Source: Pseudomonadota bacterium (lineage in GTDB: Bacteria; Myxococcota; JACRCW01; JAFGSX01). From it: 64,000 nt of DNA. The stretch lies in contig JBDRCO010000072.1 of NCBI GenBank assembly GCA_043821645.1, positions 97,069-161,068 on the forward strand, in the 5' to 3' direction. Every line of letters starts with the position of its first letter. The first letter of the stretch is position 1. Positions 11,661 through 19,277 of the stretch are shown here, piece by piece. The translations under genes were made by a program, and so were the position numbers. The notes under the pieces are model-generated. The model did no database searches. It was not told the DNA's origin and was given only the letters and a program-made list of their open reading frames with translations.

Positions 11661-14600
11661 ATGGCGCAGCGGAAACGTCTCGGCGACTACCTCATCGAGG
11701 CTGGCATCATCGACCAGTTCCAGCTGCAGTCTGCGCTGGGGCATCAGAGGCAGTGGGGTGGCAAGCTCGGCCGGATCCTGGTCGAGAATCGCTTCGTCAA
11801 GGAAGACGTGATGGTGCGCGCGCTGTCCGAGCTGCTCCGCATCGATGCCGTCGAACTCTCCTTGATGACCATCCACGCCCGGGTCATCGAGCTGGTGCCC
11901 GTGGACATGGCCGAGCGCTTCGGGCTGATCCCGGTGGCACTCAAGCGCGAGAAAGCAGGCGAGTTCGTCTACATCGCCATGAGCGATCCCACCAATCTCG
12001 AGGCCGTCGACGCCATCCAGTTCAAGACCGGCAAGAAGGTCAGGTCGATGATCGCGGGGGACAGCGCGATCGATCGCGCCATCCGCCACTACTATTACGG
12101 AGAGACCCCCCGCGAGACAGCCAGCACACCGGCCGGACAGGTCCAGTTCTCGGGCCGCGAGATCGCGCTGTCGCCTACCCATACGCCGCCTACCCAGGCA
12201 GCGGTGCAGGCCCCTGCGGCGGCGGGCCACCCGGCGCTCGTGGTCCCTCCTCCGGCGACCTCGCAAGGTGCCATGCCGACGCCCCCTGTTCATCCTTTCG
12301 CGGGGCAGCCCCAGCCAGCGCTCGCTCTCCCGGACGACGACGACGACATTCCTCTGATCACGGGCACTCCGGCGGGACCAGCGACGGCAGATGACTGGTT
12401 CTTGCCTGGTGCACCCGCTCCGGCACAGGCACTCGCAACGGCTGTTTCAGCCCCACCTGTACCTGCGACGCCCGCAGTTCCCCCAGCGCTTCCCGTCGGG
12501 CCGGCCCCGCAGCAGCAGGCACCGGTGATCCTGGATGCGCGAGAATTGACGGCCGTGAATCCGCCCGAGGCGCCATTGCCGAACGCAGCGAGCGTGCTCT
12601 CTCCTTCTCAGGTGCCTCCCCCGACGCCAGTGTCGGCCTCCTCGAGTCTTTTTGGCCCGGCCGGGGGCCTCCTGGGGGGTGAGGATGCTGGACCGGGTTT
12701 GTCGGCGCCGCGGCAGGATGTGGCATTCGGAACGCTGGAACTCCCGACACCGGGTGCTGGGACGGCTGCGACGAGACCGCCGGCGGCGAGGACTCCGCCT
12801 GTGCAACCCGCAACCGCAGGTCCGGCCCCTGCAGGTCTGGGGCACGTCGAACCGCCGGACGCTGCCGGCACTCCAGCGGTCCTGGACAGCAATCTTCTGC
12901 AACCCATCAAGGAACCTGCAGTCGCCAACGCTGTGCTGGGTGAGATGGAGTTTGCTGCCCCTGAAAGCCCGCCGAGCGCATCCACCGCACCGGGGCTGGA
13001 GCCTGGTGTGATCCCGGATCGATTCCCGGCGTCAGCGCCACTTCCGGAGCATCTTCTCGCCGCCTCGGGAATGGCATCCTTCGATCTGGGGCCCGGTGAC
13101 GACGATCCGCTCGAATTGGACCTCCCGGGCACACCTGTCGCCACGCCGGGGCCTGCCACCTCCACCTTGACGGTGGCTCCGAACTATGAGGTTGACCTCG
13201 GACCCGAGTCCGCTGCGATTCCCCTCGACGAGGCGACATCTCCGGCCCCGCACTCCAGATCCCCTGTGTCCGACGACGGCAGTGCTGCGGCCATGCCCGG
13301 GGCGGTCCTCGCCGCGTCGGGACTGGCAGACTTCGAACTCGACGAGGATGGCAGCAGCATCGAGCTCGACTTCGACACCCCGACCCCAGACGACGCGCAG
13401 TCCGCGACCCCCGCGGATCCTCTGGCGAGCATGCTTCCTGTACAGCACGCGAGCGATGAGCCCCTCGAGAGCCGCACCGAGCCCGAGAGCCCTGGGGTTG
13501 ACGACAGCCTGAGTTTCGTCCCCCTCGCTCCTCCCCAGCGTGTCTCCGCCGCGGCCGCCCAAGCTGCGACCATCACCCCGAGTATACCGGTGCAGGAGAA
13601 CTCCTCGGCCGCCGAGACAGAGGCAGCGGTCACGGCGGACCCTGTCGACGTGCCGCCCCCGAGCGGCAGGGACCCGTCCGGGTTGGAGCTGGTCCCTCCG
13701 GTGTCCACGGCCTTCTCCTTCGAAGACCTGGATCGGCCCCCCGCCGACGCGGTTCCCCTCGGCACCGGCCCCGACCTCGAGGTGGTTCAAGCCGAGGAGA
13801 TTAAGCGGCTGGACGCTCCGAGCCACAGTCCTCAGCTGGAGACGATCCCAGCCCAGGCTGACGATTCACCGGACGCCTCTCTGCGGGAGAAGACAGAGAC
13901 CCCAGCGGCGGTCGAAGATCCGCCCCTGCCAGACCTCCCGATGGAGGTCTTCAGCGATGTCGTCGACGTGGACGCACCGCCAGTGCTGGTCACCCCTGCA
14001 CGTCTGGCGGATCCCGCGGTCGAGACCCCAGCCCCGCCGCTGCCAGAGCGCACAACCGCTCCGGAGGTGGAAGGAGCACAGGCACCTCGACGCCCGCTGC
14101 CGCCAGACCCTGTGGCGGAGGCCTCGCTGGTCGCACTCGAGGACGGAGCCAGCGACGATCTCAGCGACCTCGACTTCTCGCTCGACATCGAGGACCCACC
14201 TCCACCCCTGGCTGCGCGTGTGCCGAAAGAGCTGCAGGCCACCGAGGAACCCGCGGTACACGAAGGGGCCGCGTCCTCCGAGCAAGCACCTCCACTCGAA
14301 CTCAGCCCCACCACCCCGGCACTCATGACCGGGGGCAGCCCGGATATCGAACCGGGACAGGGCGTGAGCGACGATCTTTTGATCCCCGAAGTGCCTGCGC
14401 AGGACCTGGCCGAGGACACCGAGGACAGCACCGTCACCGATGGTGACGAACACGCGACGATGCACGATCCCGCGTCTGATACCCAGGCACCCCAGGAGCA
14501 AAGCCCGATGTCCGGCCTGGAGCGCACGATCGAAGACGCAGCGCCACAGGACACGGAACCAGCCAGCCCAGGCGTCTCCGCTCCACCCAGCGCACTCACT

Positions 14601-15899
14601 CCCGTCGACACCCAGACCATGGATCTGGCCCAGGGGGCCTTTGACCCGTCGAACTGGAGTCTGGATGCCTTCCCCGAATCGCTCCCAGCAGCATCGGTGG
14701 CAGCCCCTGCACCGATCGAGGACAAATTCGCCGAGCCTGCCGGCGCGATGCCGGGCCCGGAGGATCAGGACTTCGAATCCATCGTCGACTTCTCGGAGTC
14801 AGACTTTCCGAGCGAGGCCCAGAGTCAGGACGCCGTGCTGGGAGAGGAGGATGAGGACGTCGATTCCATCATCGATTTCAAGGAATCGGACTCCCCGCGC
14901 GAGGTCCAGGGTCCGGAGACCGCGCCGGGACCGGAAGCGGACGAGTTCGTGTCCATCCTTGACTTCTCGGAGTCGGACTCCCCGCGCGAGGCCCAGAGTC
15001 CGGAGCCCAGTGCTCCCGTCGCTGACGCTCCAGCCTCCGATGGTCCGATGCCGGCGACGATCGGCCGCGTGGAAGGTGAACCGAACGCGGCTTCCGTCTC
15101 CGATGATGAAGAAGCCTCGGACCTGGACCTGGGCGAGGATCTGCCAAACTCCGAGCCCATCTCGCTGCTACCTCCACCACCCAACTTCTCCTCGGCCTCC
15201 GCCCTGCTCTCCGCACTGGACCAGGGAGAGGATCTCCCCGACCTCGAGCAGCCAGACGCCTGGATAGATGCACCGGCGGCACCGATCGCGCGGGACCCGT
15301 CCGAGGCCTCCCTGGCCCGGTTCCACGACGACGCCGACCCGAGCGATGCGCTCGACCTCCCATTTGACGCGGAGCAGGCACCCTCGCCCGCTCCCAGTGC
15401 CACGACAGTCCTGGATGAGCCGCCATCCTCCAGCCACCCGATCGAGGATCTGAGCTCGGCCCTCGACGTGGCTTTCCCGGACCTCACCCTCGATCCCCCG
15501 ACGGAAGACAGCGTGCCACCGTCTCTCCCGGCAGCTGGGAGTCGGCTGCCAGAGGTCGCCCTGGACGCGCTCGGGGATGACATCGACGCGGTCGCGACGG
15601 AATTTCAGCTCGACCCACCGGCGAGCGAGCCCGCGATGACCCTGTCTGGATCTGACGTCGCGGTGCTACCCGAACTCCAGCTCGAGGGCCCGGAGCTGGC
15701 AGACGAATCCTTGACGGCCTCAGCGTCAGGGCCAGCCACCGAGAAGACGACGACACATCCGGTCCTGGCACCCGATGTGGAGGCTCTGCTCGACAATATC
15801 GATGCCGCCAAGATGCCCGCGGTCCTCAAGCTGCTGCTGGAAAAGGGTCTGCTCTCCCTCGAGGACATCGAGGCGACCCTGGGCAAGAAGAAGGACTGA
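11661..15899 (+). CDS. Giant MshEN-domain protein with long acidic Pro/Ala/Asp/Glu-rich linker
   Basis: RLGDYLIEAGIIDQFQLQSALGHQ...KLGRILVE, AMSDPTNLEAVDAI; about 1,200 aa of low-complexity sequence; short conserved C-terminal helix. Confidence 0.82.
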   Translation: MAQRKRLGDYLIEAGIIDQFQLQSALGHQRQWGGKLGRILVENRFVKEDVMVRALSELLRIDAVELSLMTIHARVIELVPVDMAERFGLIPVALKREKAGEFVYIAMSDPTNLEAVDAIQFKTGKKVRSMIAGDSAIDRAIRHYYYGETPRETASTPAGQVQFSGREIALSPTHTPPTQAAVQAPAAAGHPALVVPPPATSQGAMPTPPVHPFAGQPQPALALPDDDDDIPLITGTPAGPATADDWFLPGAPAPAQALATAVSAPPVPATPAVPPALPVGPAPQQQAPVILDARELTAVNPPEAPLPNAASVLSPSQVPPPTPVSASSSLFGPAGGLLGGEDAGPGLSAPRQDVAFGTLELPTPGAGTAATRPPAARTPPVQPATAGPAPAGLGHVEPPDAAGTPAVLDSNLLQPIKEPAVANAVLGEMEFAAPESPPSASTAPGLEPGVIPDRFPASAPLPEHLLAASGMASFDLGPGDDDPLELDLPGTPVATPGPATSTLTVAPNYEVDLGPESAAIPLDEATSPAPHSRSPVSDDGSAAAMPGAVLAASGLADFELDEDGSSIELDFDTPTPDDAQSATPADPLASMLPVQHASDEPLESRTEPESPGVDDSLSFVPLAPPQRVSAAAAQAATITPSIPVQENSSAAETEAAVTADPVDVPPPSGRDPSGLELVPPVSTAFSFEDLDRPPADAVPLGTGPDLEVVQAEEIKRLDAPSHSPQLETIPAQADDSPDASLREKTETPAAVEDPPLPDLPMEVFSDVVDVDAPPVLVTPARLADPAVETPAPPLPERTTAPEVEGAQAPRRPLPPDPVAEASLVALEDGASDDLSDLDFSLDIEDPPPPLAARVPKELQATEEPAVHEGAASSEQAPPLELSPTTPALMTGGSPDIEPGQGVSDDLLIPEVPAQDLAEDTEDSTVTDGDEHATMHDPASDTQAPQEQSPMSGLERTIEDAAPQDTEPASPGVSAPPSALTPVDTQTMDLAQGAFDPSNWSLDAFPESLPAASVAAPAPIEDKFAEPAGAMPGPEDQDFESIVDFSESDFPSEAQSQDAVLGEEDEDVDSIIDFKESDSPREVQGPETAPGPEADEFVSILDFSESDSPREAQSPEPSAPVADAPASDGPMPATIGRVEGEPNAASVSDDEEASDLDLGEDLPNSEPISLLPPPPNFSSASALLSALDQGEDLPDLEQPDAWIDAPAAPIARDPSEASLARFHDDADPSDALDLPFDAEQAPSPAPSATTVLDEPPSSSHPIEDLSSALDVAFPDLTLDPPTEDSVPPSLPAAGSRLPEVALDALGDDIDAVATEFQLDPPASEPAMTLSGSDVAVLPELQLEGPELADESLTASASGPATEKTTTHPVLAPDVEALLDNIDAAKMPAVLKLLLEKGLLSLEDIEATLGKKKD
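14751..15010 (+). repeat. Three imperfect 87-nt (29-aa) coding tandem repeats
   Basis: SIVDFSESDFPSEAQ / SIIDFKESDSPREVQ / SILDFSESDSPREAQ; the Asp codons fall at 14787, 14874 and 14961. Confidence 0.85.
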
Positions 15900-15933: not shown

Positions 15934-16302
15934 TCAGTCTTCTCCGCGCGCTGCCACGATGGTGTCAATGAGCTGTCGGCTCTCGTCGTCGAGGCTGAGG
16001 AACTCGATACCCATGCCTGGCACCTGATCGGCACTCGCCTGGGCGCTGGCCCACACGACGCGACCGATGCCCTCGATGAGAGGCATCCCATCTGCCAGGG
16101 CAAAGCGCAGGTAGATGGTCGAGCCGATCGCATGCGGCGAATCGGTGCGCAGGAACAGTCCCCCGGCCGACAGGTCGGTCGCGATCTCTTCCATGAAGGC
16201 TTCGAGGGTCTCGAAGCGGTGCTGAACCAGGAGGTTGAGCGGGACGCGACGGTGGCGACGCCGGTCCTTCGGATCAGACGATGCCCCATGCGGCTTTGCC
16301 AT
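15934..16302 (-). CDS. PilZ-domain protein (TIGR02266-like)
   Basis: RRRHRR (RxxxR) and DLSAGG (DxSxxG) motifs, GRVVW, GMGIEF; GGAGG before ATG 16302. Confidence 0.9.
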   Translation of the reverse strand: MAKPHGASSDPKDRRRHRRVPLNLLVQHRFETLEAFMEEIATDLSAGGLFLRTDSPHAIGSTIYLRFALADGMPLIEGIGRVVWASAQASADQVPGMGIEFLSLDDESRQLIDTIVAARGED

Positions 16303-16393
16303 CCCTGACCTCCCTGTGCCTGGCGTGCTGCATGAGTCTAGCGCGAATTCAGTTCGGGTAAAAAAGAAGACGCTCGCGCGCCAGGTGCCGGGC

Positions 16394-17458
16394 TCAGGGC
16401 TGCAGGGCCGCACGCTGGGCTGCCACCTCCGGGTCATCGGGAAGCCGGGCATCGAGCTCAAGCAGCCGGTAGCGGTAGCGGGTCTTGCCACGCTGTCTCT
16501 CGAGCCAGGCGGCAGTCTCCGCCTGCTCTGCGCGCGCCTGTGCATCCTCGGGCCTGCGCACGAGTCTCTGCACCGCCAGCTCCCGGCGCTCCCGCGCGTC
16601 CTCGGTGACGGCCCCGCCACGCCAGGTGGCGTCACCCCGAACAGCCCACACCTCGAACTGGACGAGGTAGTGACCTTGCTGGCCGGCGGCCACCACGGGC
16701 ACGCTGCTGCCGTCCCTCTCCGGGTGCTGGCCAGGCCGGGCCTCCTCGCGAGGCAGAAAAGAAACCAGCCCACGCTGGGCGACCAGCACCACCGACACCT
16801 GTGGCAACCCCTGCGCCAGCCTGGCCGCGGCGTCGGAGGACATGCGTGCCACCAGCACCACATGATCACCGGGCCGGGCCACCTTCGCCAGCACCCCGCG
16901 CAGCGCAGGCAGGGCGGGTGTCGGGTCCAGGCCCGTCGCGGGTGGCCAGTTGGCCGGATCCAGCGCACTGACGACGACGATACGCTGCCCACCGAGCTGC
17001 CGCACCACGTGGCTCTGGTAGGCCGGTCGGCGATCCGCGACCCGCACCAGGTTGCTGGCCACCACGGGGAGCTTGTACGCGCGCACCAGCTCGTCGAAGC
17101 GCGCAAGCCCCAGGCCGAGGTCACCCGGCCCGGGTACCAGCGCATCCAGCTCAGCCCTGTGGAGAGCACTTGCGATCACACGTGCCCGCGCCAGCGCAAG
17201 GACGCCATTGTCCCCTGGCGACGCCGCCTCGTCGAAGAAGCTGTTACCACCCTCGATGTGGAGCACGGGTCCGCGCTCCCGCAGTGCCCGGATCGTTCCC
17301 ACCTGCCTGGCCAGACCGCCAAGCGGACCACTGGGTCAGCCACAGGGGTCGAGGGCCCCCTCCCGGTCGTGGGCATAAAGCACCGTGAAGCTCACGGGCT
17401 CGTCGTCGAGGTTGGCGGCGCAGAGCAGGACAGACGCCACCACGGCCAGGGCGTGCAT
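16394..17458 (-). CDS. Putative UshA-like (5'-nucleotidase fold) selenoprotein, CxU motif, Sec at codon 41
   Basis: ORFs 17336..17599 and 16394..17302 share one frame: ...GALDPCG-TGA-PSGPLGGLARQVGTI.... Signal peptide at the N-terminus and a SECIS-like hairpin after the TGA (17336-17338). Confidence 0.85.
17298..17335 (-). promoter_or_regulatory. Bacterial SECIS-like element
   Basis: UGA + 11 nt + stem GCUUGGC/GCCAGGC closing loop GGUCUG; basal CCCA/UGGG pairing. Confidence 0.78.
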
Positions 17459-17465
17459 GCTTCGC

Positions 17466-18767
17466 TCAGCCCGTGATCTCGGCGTTGCCTGGGCGGATGG
17501 CCTGCGGCCCGAAGGGGCAGCGTTGGAGCCGGATGTGCTCCTCGAACTCGTGCCGGAACTTCTTGACGAAGGCTCGGGCCGGGATCGCGGCCGCGTCACC
17601 CAGCGGGCAGATGGTGTTGCCGAGGATGTTGGCGGCGACCTCGTCGAACAGCGTGATGTCCTCGCTGCTTCCGTGGCCCTGCTCGACCCGGGTCGCCATC
17701 TTGGCGATCCAGTGCGTGCCCTCGCGGCAGGGCGTGCACTGCCCGCAGGACTCGTGGGCGTAGAAGCGCATCAGCCGGGCGGTCAGGCGCACCGTGCAGG
17801 TACTCTCGTCGAGGACCGCGGCACAGCCTGTGCCCAGCATGGTGCCCGCCTTCGACATGGCATCAAAAGTGAGAGGCACATCGATCTCGTCTGGAAGCAG
17901 CACCGGTGTCGACGAACCGCCGGGGATCACACCCTTGAGCGCCTTGCCATCGCGCAGACCCCCGCCATGCTCGAAGATCAGTTCCTTGAGCGAGATGCCC
18001 TGGGGGAGTTCCCACAGACCGGGCCTCGCCACGTGGCCAGAGGCGCCGTACAGCTTGGTGCCCACACCGCCGTTGACGCCCAGGCTCTTCCAGGCGTCGG
18101 CACCACGCTCGAGGATGTGCGGCACCTGGGCCAGGGTCTCGACGTTATTGACGATGGTGGGCTGGCCAAACACGCCGACCACTGCGGGAAACGGAGGCTT
18201 GAGACGCGGCTTGCCCGGTTTCCCTTCGATGGACTCGATGAGCGCGGTCTCCTCGCCACAGACGTAAGCGCCTGCACCACGATGCACGAAGACGTCGAGG
18301 TCGAAACCTTTACCCAGGATGTTCTTGCCCAGATAGTGCGCGTCCACGGCCTCGGCGATGGCCTGCTCCAGGCGTCGGGCGATGGCGTGAAACTCGCCGC
18401 GAATATAGATGTAGGCCGTATGGGCGCCGATGGCATGGCAGGCGATCGCGATGCCCTCGAGCATCATGTGGGGATCGCGGTCCATGATGTAACGATCTTT
18501 GTATGTGCCCGGCTCACCCTCGTCAGCGTTGATGCACAGGTAGCGGGGACCGGGCTTGTCCTTGGGCACGAAGCTCCACTTCATGCCCGTCGAGAAGCCG
18601 GCGCCGCCCATGCCGCGCAGTCCTGACTTCTTGACCTCCTCGATGAGGTCGCCCGGAGCCATGGCCAGGGCCTTTGCCAGCGACGTGTAGCCGCCACCCT
18701 GCAGGTAGGTCTTGAGCGTGTGGCTCTCGGGCTTGCCCCAGTTGCGCGACAGCAGTCGCTCGCCCAT
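17466..18767 (-). CDS. nuoF: NADH-quinone oxidoreductase subunit F
   Basis: GLRGMGGAGF, NADEGEPGT, GAGAYVCGEETAL, ESCGQCTPCREG, TICPLGD. ATG 18767 follows GAGG. Confidence 0.96.
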   Translation of the reverse strand: MGERLLSRNWGKPESHTLKTYLQGGGYTSLAKALAMAPGDLIEEVKKSGLRGMGGAGFSTGMKWSFVPKDKPGPRYLCINADEGEPGTYKDRYIMDRDPHMMLEGIAIACHAIGAHTAYIYIRGEFHAIARRLEQAIAEAVDAHYLGKNILGKGFDLDVFVHRGAGAYVCGEETALIESIEGKPGKPRLKPPFPAVVGVFGQPTIVNNVETLAQVPHILERGADAWKSLGVNGGVGTKLYGASGHVARPGLWELPQGISLKELIFEHGGGLRDGKALKGVIPGGSSTPVLLPDEIDVPLTFDAMSKAGTMLGTGCAAVLDESTCTVRLTARLMRFYAHESCGQCTPCREGTHWIAKMATRVEQGHGSSEDITLFDEVAANILGNTICPLGDAAAIPARAFVKKFRHEFEEHIRLQRCPFGPQAIRPGNAEITG

Positions 18768-18809
18768 TGCGTACCTCGTCATCGCGGCTGTCGGTTCGCC
18801 CGGTCCGCG

Positions 18810-19277
18810 TCAGTCGGCGGCCCGCAGCACCGCCGCCACCTTCTCAGGGGTCATGTTCTCGTGAAAATCGCCGTCCACCTGCAGGGCAGGCGCCGTGCCA
18901 CAGGAGCCCAGGCACTCGACCTCGTGAACGGTGAAACGGCCGTCGGCGGTGGTCTCTCCCGGCTTGACGCCGAGTTCGTGGCACACGCTGTCGAGCAGTT
19001 CCTGACCGCCGGTGAGGTGGCAGGACAGGTTGGTGCAGATCTCGACCAGGTGCTTTCCGACGGGGTGCTTGTGGTACATGGTGTACCAGGTCGCCACCTC
19101 GCGCACCCGGATCTCGTCGAGCTCGAGCAGCGCCGCCACCTCGCGCACGCCCTCGTCGTCGACCAGCTCGCGCTCACGCTGCACCACGTAAAGCGCGGGC
19201 AGGGTGGCTGCCGCCCGATCCGGGTAGCGTGTCTTGAGGGATGCGATCTCCTTCTTGGATGCCTCGCTCAGAGCCAT
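18810..19277 (-). CDS. nuoE: NADH-quinone oxidoreductase subunit E
   Basis: VATWYTMY, CTNLSC and ECLGSCGTAP [2Fe-2S] motifs. Confidence 0.95.
   Translation of the reverse strand: MALSEASKKEIASLKTRYPDRAAATLPALYVVQRERELVDDEGVREVAALLELDEIRVREVATWYTMYHKHPVGKHLVEICTNLSCHLTGGQELLDSVCHELGVKPGETTADGRFTVHEVECLGSCGTAPALQVDGDFHENMTPEKVAAVLRAAD

Follow-up and report, generated by a model that had tools for sequence, protein, structure and literature searches.

How should an open reading frame (ORF) be read that stops at an internal TGA codon and then runs on in the same frame? This question is raised by a gene on the minus strand of a 64,000-nucleotide stretch of DNA (hereafter the window) from contig JBDRCO010000072.1 of the Pseudomonadota bacterium assembly GCA_043821645.1 (positions 97,069 to 161,068), which is placed in Myxococcota in the GTDB. 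An earlier reading of the window, made from its letters and ORFs alone (the sequence-only reading), described a signal-peptide-like ORF that stops at a TGA at 17336-17338 and whose frame then continues, and proposed an exported selenocysteine (Sec) protein of 354 amino acids that standard gene callers truncate. We find that the apparent internal stop is very probably a genuine Sec codon and that the locus is one gene for a 354-amino-acid UshA-like selenoprotein. The gene is a short-form relative within a catalogued family; recognising it is a correction of annotation and not the discovery of a new kind of system. Four lines of sequence evidence together make the selenoprotein reading a strong one: the in-frame UGA, the alternation of Cys and UGA at the same codon in relatives, a covarying hairpin with a GGU loop, and the presence of the Sec machinery in the genome.

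A single gene with an in-frame UGA codon

The gene opens with an ATG at 17458-17456 on the minus strand, which starts a frame of 354 codons with one in-frame TGA. The N-terminal part ahead of the TGA translates as MHALAVVASVLLCAANLDDEPVSFTVLYAHDREGALDPCG. The TGA at 17336-17338 is codon 41 and lies in a P-C-G-U motif (DPCGU, residues 37-41), past which the same frame runs on as PSGPLGGLARQVGTI for 313 more codons to a TGA at 16394-16396, giving a read-through product of 354 amino acids (Table 1). Public gene calls cut the gene in two, a 40-amino-acid protein that is identical to residues 1-40 (P0054) and a 290-amino-acid protein (P0002), whose start in the window was placed from the product length and an in-frame GTG at 17266-17264. 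The interrupted ORF and its continuation are therefore on the minus strand exactly as the sequence-only reading had them, and the length of the protein and its truncation by gene callers are borne out; the export that it also proposed has the status of a prediction, which is discussed below.

The TGA is not an assembly slip. Logan contigs of sequencing run X1, which is possibly the source sample, cover positions 16541-17600 with one difference, at 17063, and a contig of run X3, from another study, covers positions 17313-17575 without any difference. Contigs of both runs keep TGA at codon 41, and not the TGC, TGT or TGG that would have pointed to an ordinary codon. None of the runs listed as containing the sequence is recorded as RNA, and hardly any of the sampled words turned up in the two RNA runs of the same study.

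Homologues carry Cys or UGA at codon 41

Of 61 related genomes, 44 gave a match to the gene in a six-frame search (E <= 0.001). One TGA interrupts the match in G001, G002 and G003, which are family- and class-level relatives, and in others there is no stop; translated, the loci read ...PC(G/S)U... in the TGA relatives and ...PCGC... at the aligned place in those without a stop. A sample of 401 genomes from the phylum gave matches in 235 genomes (E <= 1e-8), and one TGA was counted by hand in 100 of the 150 among the matches listed (99 of 149 without one row from the unpublished genome G195). We fetched 40 more loci by their TGA flag (28 with a TGA and 12 with none) and joined them to the first 20. 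The TGA is the codon after C-G/S in all 38 loci flagged as having one, and TGC or TGT stands at that codon in all 22 loci flagged as having none.

Protein databases give a matching picture. An exhaustive search of 1.84 billion representatives yielded 1965 hits (E <= 0.001), of which the best 153 were aligned. Thirteen of these miss the region and one is the 40-amino-acid fragment, and among the 139 that cover position 41 the residue is Cys in 137. The ten closest hits without the region all begin after residue 52, as is expected for mis-called Sec forms. A word-indexed homologue search returned four hits only, two of them truncated. The prediction that homologues would have Cys or Sec at residue 41 thus agrees both with these proteins and with the flagged loci.

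The gene is also present in named genomes. A scan of their contigs with the single protein found no relative, and a scan with a closer alignment (A4) found 80 loci, in Myxococcus, Corallococcus, Archangium, Cystobacter, Hyalangium, Pyxidicoccus and Vitiosangium; the search used two patterns, of which one favoured Cys forms. A motif scan scored 74 of the 80 loci, with TGA in 56, TGC in 17 and TGT in one, and six were unmatched by the expression. TGA carriers among the scored loci include Myxococcus xanthus and Corallococcus coralloides. Locus L113 is on a record titled Comamonas sp. KCTC 72670 (BNCN01000006.1) and is a Myxococcus-type short Sec gene with 61% identity to the A4 query; the organism label looks wrong.

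A hairpin that is kept with the UGA codon

In bacterial Sec decoding, SelB carrying Sec-tRNA(Sec) recognises an mRNA hairpin, the selenocysteine insertion sequence (SECIS), as the ribosome reaches the UGA. In the window a hairpin begins 11 nt after the UGA, with a 5' arm GCUUGGC (17324-17318), a loop GGUCUG (17317-17312) and a 3' arm GCCAGGC (17311-17305) that form a stem of seven pairs, one of them U-G. This is the hairpin that the sequence-only reading described, and it may resemble the SECIS of E. coli fdhF (GGUC loop, G23/U24 spacing), a likeness that this reading proposed. Its 6-nt loop starting with GG, its 7-bp stem, the 18 nt from UGA to loop and its energy of -13.4 kcal/mol agree with the four constraints of the bacterial SECIS model set out in the legend to Fig. 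2 of PMC13188914.

To compare genomes, we scored the 7-bp helix on an ungapped alignment (A2) of the 48 nt from the UGA onwards in 38 Sec forms. In these, 88.4% of cells were paired, against 78.4% in shuffles (0 of 500 as high), and the covariation score was 0.338, against 0.160 in shuffles (0 of 500 reached it), with changes on both sides at four of the seven pairs. As a control, sliding the partner by one to three columns lowered pairing to 18-47%. Among Cys forms, 53.7% of cells were paired and covariation was not above shuffles (438 of 500 reached it). This set comprised 21 of the 22 Cys loci, L077 being left out because a spacer that is one codon shorter puts it out of register. The fixed hairpin has a mean energy of -11.4 kcal/mol in the Sec forms, of which 35 of 38 reach -7.5 kcal/mol or lower, and of -0.2 kcal/mol in the Cys forms, of which one of 21 does so; since the sequences are related, the p-value of this contrast is overstated. 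The Cys form L073 (G182:C1) keeps six of the seven SECIS pairs at -9.9 kcal/mol, with a loop GGCUUG, as would be expected if Sec had been replaced by Cys there recently.

Most of the covarying columns are synonymous or lie across codons. In the Arg codon, the third base tracks the first base of the facing variable codon (CG 12, UA 10, AU 4, UG 2, GC 1), and the first base (A or C) tracks the third base of the facing variable codon (UA 25, GC 9). The second Gly codon of the GGLAR motif, the source of the GU in the loop, is GGT in 56 of 56 Sec forms of named myxobacteria and in none of 18 Cys forms; the majority of these Cys forms encode an identical peptide, GGLARRK. Among the 38 aligned Sec forms, four besides G001 carry GGC or GGG at this codon. 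By this comparison of sequences, the hairpin is a SECIS that is kept in Sec forms and not in Cys forms, and it both fits the published constraints and covaries. With a SECIS that lies on the conserved GGLAR codons, and Cys paralogues of the same peptide as a natural control, the family offers a clean case of RNA-level selection on synonymous sites.

The genome encodes the Sec machinery

The genome that contains the window (7.07 Mb in 140 contigs, 94.7% complete) has a tRNA-Sec gene (78.6 bits, cut-off 47; called by ARAGORN as SeC with anticodon tca), selA (531 bits, above the family cut-off), selB (256 bits, cut-off 242) and selD (388 bits, above the cut-off), the last with an in-frame TGA of its own. 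The organism can thus be taken to make selenoproteins. The sequence-only reading had made its case depend on selA, selB, selC and selD, all of which are present, each above its family cut-off. The selD gene (L018; G000:C87:204011-204937, minus strand) reads …TVCGAGU-ASKLGPGD…, and behind its TGA comes a GC-rich hairpin whose loop begins with GG. The in-frame TGA and this hairpin suggest that SelD is itself a selenoprotein here.

A 5'-nucleotidase fold that has lost its metal site

No Pfam family matched the protein. A profile of 110 aligned relatives (A1) searched against the PDB matched the 5'-nucleotidase 2z1a (E 3.4e-39) as well as CD73, UshA and the thiosulfohydrolase SoxB (2wdc, E 1.1e-29). 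The AlphaFold model has a mean predicted local distance difference test (pLDDT) score of 94.9, and Foldseek likewise matched it to CD73, 5'-nucleotidase and SoxB (E ~1e-17 to 1e-18, TMq ~0.65). The C-terminal substrate-binding domain (5_nucleotid_C) is absent from the window protein, with no Pfam hit; residues 230-354 are modelled as a helical hairpin and short strands.

Of the dimetal site, the first Asp alone is kept, as is seen both in the profile alignment and when the protein is aligned with a canonical 5'-nucleotidase from its own genome. The canonical D-x-H is D31-R-E33 in the window protein, D..GD is E69..N72, G-N-H-E is G-P111-G112-D113, the His of motif IV is R205, and G-H-x-H (motif V) is Q228-R-G230. 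Positions 33, 111, 112 and 230, which correspond to canonical His, Asn, His and His ligands, are unconserved among the 110 relatives. Residues that are at least 90% conserved in the same set are C39, C/U41, G47, G48, G71, D113, G117 and N136; C39 and residue 41 are each found in 102 of the 110 rows, the rest being gaps except for one Leu at 39. The C-G-U pair is in the loop after the first metal-binding motif, which follows strand 1. With most of the metal and catalytic residues replaced and the C-terminal domain absent, the protein has a 5'-nucleotidase fold without the catalytic equipment of a hydrolase.

The canonical 5'-nucleotidase of the genome (L083; G000:C3:140700-143500) is an N-domain gene with NDTH, GGD, GNHDFD and GGHTH intact and a twin-arginine-like signal (RRRFL). 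Ahead of it, a second ORF encodes a 5'-nucleotidase C-terminal domain, so that the two look like a split enzyme.

Long and short forms of the family

Residues 12-229 of the window protein align to positions 11-235 of the 519 in the NCBIfam model NF041198 (UshA_like_PCGU) with an E-value of 1.7e-34, and all 110 aligned relatives match this model. The Sec orthologues of the class-level relatives G002 and G003 are longer (499 and 502 amino acids) and have a C-terminus with four CxxCH motifs, a module that matches Pfam Cytochrome_C554 (E 1e-14 to 7e-16). NF041198 aligns to this haem module too, from about position 320 to 518 of the model, and scores 224 and 267 bits for the two proteins, just below its cut-off. 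Since the model itself includes the haem module, the catalogued family is a UshA-like domain fused to a tetrahaem cytochrome c. The window protein has no CxxCH motif up to residue 354, and its end falls near the point at which the long forms enter the fused module.

Short Sec forms are common in Myxococcota. They are found in Myxococcus, Corallococcus, Archangium and Cystobacter, and the translated Sec forms of the Myxococcus/Archangium group are about 367-373 amino acids long. Elsewhere in the genome that contains the window, a stand-alone tetrahaem cytochrome c of 165 amino acids is encoded (L081:1381-1878; G000:C68), with four CxxCH motifs and a signal peptide. It is 37% identical to the fused module of the class-level relatives (E 2.4e-9).

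Predicted export

The window protein is predicted to be exported to the periplasm. Its N-terminus is hydrophobic, its homologues have signal- or lipoprotein-type N-termini, and c-type haem attachment, which takes place outside the cytoplasm, would put the fused relatives there. The signal of the window protein is itself weak, so the prediction leans mainly on the homologues. Cys13 might suggest a lipoprotein, but the V-L-L that precedes it does not match the usual lipobox pattern.

Proposed decoding and function, and the alternatives

Two explanations would do without Sec. The TGA might be a sequencing or assembly error for TGC or TGT, leaving an ordinary Cys protein, and it is true that the genome is a metagenome-type assembly of 140 contigs and that Cys forms are common in the family. 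This is extremely improbable: positions 17336-17338 are identical in contigs of two runs from different studies, the SECIS-type codons GGC GGU CUG GCC that accompany TGA elsewhere are present here, and the orthologues of G001, G002 and G003 have the TGA as well. Alternatively, the gene could be broken, the TGA being a nonsense mutation or the boundary between a 40-amino-acid peptide and a protein of about 300 amino acids that starts at GTG 17302 or 17266. A standard ORF listing and the public calls give exactly these pieces, and the hairpin on its own is not beyond chance. However, in 38 of 38 loci, drawn from many genera, the TGA is found at this one codon, with coding conserved on both sides of it, and the Cys forms read straight through. 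A shortened product would be missing strand 1 together with the sole motif that is invariant in the family, and compensatory and synonymous upkeep of the hairpin is seen only where the TGA is present. We consider a broken gene highly improbable, if slightly less so than an error in the sequence. With Sec as the preferred reading, SelB-GTP and Sec-tRNA(Sec) would bind the hairpin formed by the L-G-G-L-A-R codons while the ribosome is at the UGA, and Sec would be inserted there in place of termination.

For the function of the resulting selenoprotein, the loss of the metal site, the invariant Cys-x-Sec and the four haems of the long forms narrow the hypotheses to redox chemistry or chalcogen/metal chemistry. 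We tentatively propose that it is a periplasmic redox protein and not a hydrolase, in which C39 and U41 would alternate between thiol/selenol and selenenylsulfide states. The fused tetrahaem cytochrome c would supply the electrons in the long forms. The short form has no fused cytochrome and would thus need a separate electron donor, for which the stand-alone tetrahaem cytochrome (L081) is a candidate. Judged from sequence, a redox function of the C39/U41 pair is a serious possibility that falls somewhat short of an even chance. Its main rival, which is possible but more doubtful, is that Sec is inserted and C-G-U is a binding site for a soft metal or metalloid (Cu(I), Hg(II), As(III), Se), or a sulfur/selenium carrier (persulfide or perselenide) of the kind that SoxY is for SoxB. 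CxC motifs bind soft metals in other proteins, the CxC/CxU pair replaces the dimetal site, and there is kinship with SoxB, whose model TIGR04486 matches 89 of the 110 members and whose structure 2wdc is matched at E 1.1e-29. The tetrahaem fusion in the long forms argues instead for electron transfer to or from the site, and no metal-resistance or sox genes are found in the neighbourhood examined. It is very unlikely that the protein is still a phosphoesterase or nucleotidase in which Sec is structural or regulatory. The fold, GG(L/V)AR, D113 and N136 are common to true 5'-nucleotidases, and D31 and an acidic residue at 69 remain, but E33, P111-G112, R205, Q228 and G230, unconserved in the family, stand in place of the His of motif I, the Asn-His of GNHE and the His residues of motifs IV and V. 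The C-terminal substrate-binding domain is also absent, and a canonical 5'-nucleotidase with all motifs is encoded elsewhere in the genome.

Several observations weigh against parts of the selenoprotein and redox readings. In this GC-rich DNA, the 66-nt stretch that holds the hairpin is no more stable than its dinucleotide shuffles (z = 0.70; 149 of 200 at least as good), so that the argument for it must come from comparison with other genomes. Rfam matched no family around the UGA at E-values up to 10, the nearest relative, G001, has a loop GGACUG without the U, and the fixed-hairpin energy is above -7.5 kcal/mol in three of the 38 Sec forms. Two of the 139 homologues that cover position 41 have Arg there (P0039 and P0117). 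The selB match spans only positions 2-339 of the 581 in its model, the ATG at 17458 has no clear ribosome-binding site, and the signal-like segment has neither a preceding Lys or Arg nor a canonical lipobox. The NF041198 score is 119.3 bits, well under the cut-off of 275. It is the alignment that would place C39/U41 at the former metal site, and the neighbourhood, in the flanks within the window and in the loci of relatives, gives no pointer to a substrate. The two Arg homologues read …ACGR… and …RWGR…; they may be decayed copies, CGA being one mutation from TGA.

Genomic context

Upstream of the gene is a nuoE-nuoF-like pair, the nuoF-like gene ending 7 nt before the ATG (Table 1). Among the loci of relatives that were compared, this order recurs in G001 only, so we read no functional link into the shared operon. 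Downstream is a gene with a PilZ domain, a homologue of which lies 3' of the UshA-like gene in four of 19 relatives' loci (L022, L023, L032 and L034; 1.5-kb flanks). In 11 loci of relatives, 75 of the 240 flanking ORFs listed were analysed, and no conserved partner was found among them. The families that they gave are unrelated (ribosomal protein S1, PilZ, TPR, DNA methylase, Mur ligase and M43 peptidase), and apart from the PilZ and nuo-like genes the flanks vary from lineage to lineage. The terminator-like site directly after the stop is one of four that a consensus scan gave, where shuffles led to an expectation of 1.1. An ORF of 1412 amino acids (11661-15899, plus strand) is convergent with the PilZ gene; its N-terminus is an MshEN domain, and the remaining body of about 1200 residues is of low complexity and rich in Pro, Ala, Asp and Glu.

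Table 1. Features of the UshA-like selenoprotein gene and its neighbours, in window positions
Feature	Position	Strand	Evidence
UshA-like selenoprotein coding sequence, 354 amino acids, probable Sec at residue 41	16397..17458	-	TGA=U translation; full-length homology to Cys/Sec relatives; AlphaFold mean pLDDT 94.9
Hydrophobic signal-peptide-like N-terminus, residues 1-19, MHALAVVASVLLCAANLDD	17402..17458	-	Sequence; model helix 3-19, pLDDT ~70; N-termini of homologues
C39-G40-U41 motif, UGA as probable Sec codon at 17336-17338	17336..17344	-	Translation; 102/110 rows conserved; UGA in 38/38 Sec-type loci
SECIS hairpin, overlapping the L-G-G-L-A-R codons	17305..17324	-	-13.4 kcal/mol as fixed structure; covariation and fixed synonymous codons in Sec forms only
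True stop TGA, no SECIS-type hairpin behind it	16394..16396	-	Translation; homology ends here
290-amino-acid product of gene callers, from GTG 17266	16397..17266	-	P0002, 100% identity, 82% of query
Terminator-like GC hairpin and T-run directly after the stop	16369..16382	-	Consensus scan, pattern match only
PilZ-domain gene, downstream	15934..16302	-	Pfam PilZ 9.6e-15
nuoF-like gene	17466..18782	-	Pfam Complex1_51K 1.3e-50, NADH_4Fe-4S 5.3e-31, 2Fe-2S_thioredx 3.2e-50 (nuoE/nuoF pair)
nuoE-like gene	18810..19277	-	Pfam; upstream nuoE-nuoF pair

Significance

Reading codon 41 as Sec corrects a systematic annotation error. Gene callers split the gene into pieces of 40 and 290 amino acids, and the closest public proteins are all truncated at the N-terminus, so that for Sec forms the only invariant motif of the family is missing from databases. 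The family has stood in catalogues since 2008 as functionally uncharacterised. It is possible, although we hold it to be rather unlikely, that the short cytochrome-less forms across Myxococcota are a distinct class of periplasmic selenoenzyme, with Cys-Gly-Sec in the active-site pocket of a dead 5'-nucleotidase scaffold carrying out haem-linked redox chemistry, its substrate a small sulfur, selenium or metalloid compound and its electrons drawn from a separate tetrahaem cytochrome. If this were so, the function could be tested directly through the orthologue in Myxococcus xanthus, a genetically tractable species.

Comparison with known systems

With the proteins of NF041198, the window protein shares the 5'-nucleotidase-like N-domain, P-C-G-U/C at the same place, GGLAR and the alternation of Sec and Cys. 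It differs in that the last ~185 of the 519 model positions describe a tetrahaem cytochrome c and the window protein ends before this module; it has the P-C-G-U/C motif, a score below the cut-off and no C-terminal multihaem module (model positions ~335-518). UshA-like CxU selenoproteins of COG0737 are listed as functionally uncharacterised in the tables of PMC2398784 (Zhang & Gladyshev 2008) and of the reviews PMC9312934 and PMC13188914, in agreement with the sequence-only reading, which had assigned the protein to a recognised but uncharacterised group. The window protein has both features that define the family in those lists, UshA homology and a CxU motif with Sec. The lists give the family as table rows only. 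A second NCBIfam model, NF049981 (UshA_like_Sel_2), matches weakly over the first ~85 residues (27.8 bits, cut-off 140). The family of that type is listed with a CxxU motif, and the window protein has the CxU of the entries in PMC9312934, PMC2398784 and PMC13188914. The hairpin resembles the bacterial SECIS consensus of the bSECISearch model in being a stem-loop directly 3' of the UGA, inside the coding region, with a GG(U) loop of 6 nt.

Canonical 5'-nucleotidases (E. coli UshA, 1ush; T. thermophilus 2z1a; human CD73) share with the window protein the fold of the N-domain, GG(V/L)AR, D113 and N136. They differ in having a nucleotide-binding C-domain and the metal-binding and catalytic His and Asn residues, which are wanting in the window protein, and bacterial UshA has no counterpart of the C-G-U pair. 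SoxB is a periplasmic protein that acts on cysteine-bound sulfur species. It belongs to the same fold superfamily (PDB match to 2wdc, E 1.1e-29; Foldseek E 4e-17), but it keeps the dimanganese site and the C-terminal domain, and the window protein scores 14.5 bits against the TIGR04486 cut-off of 550.

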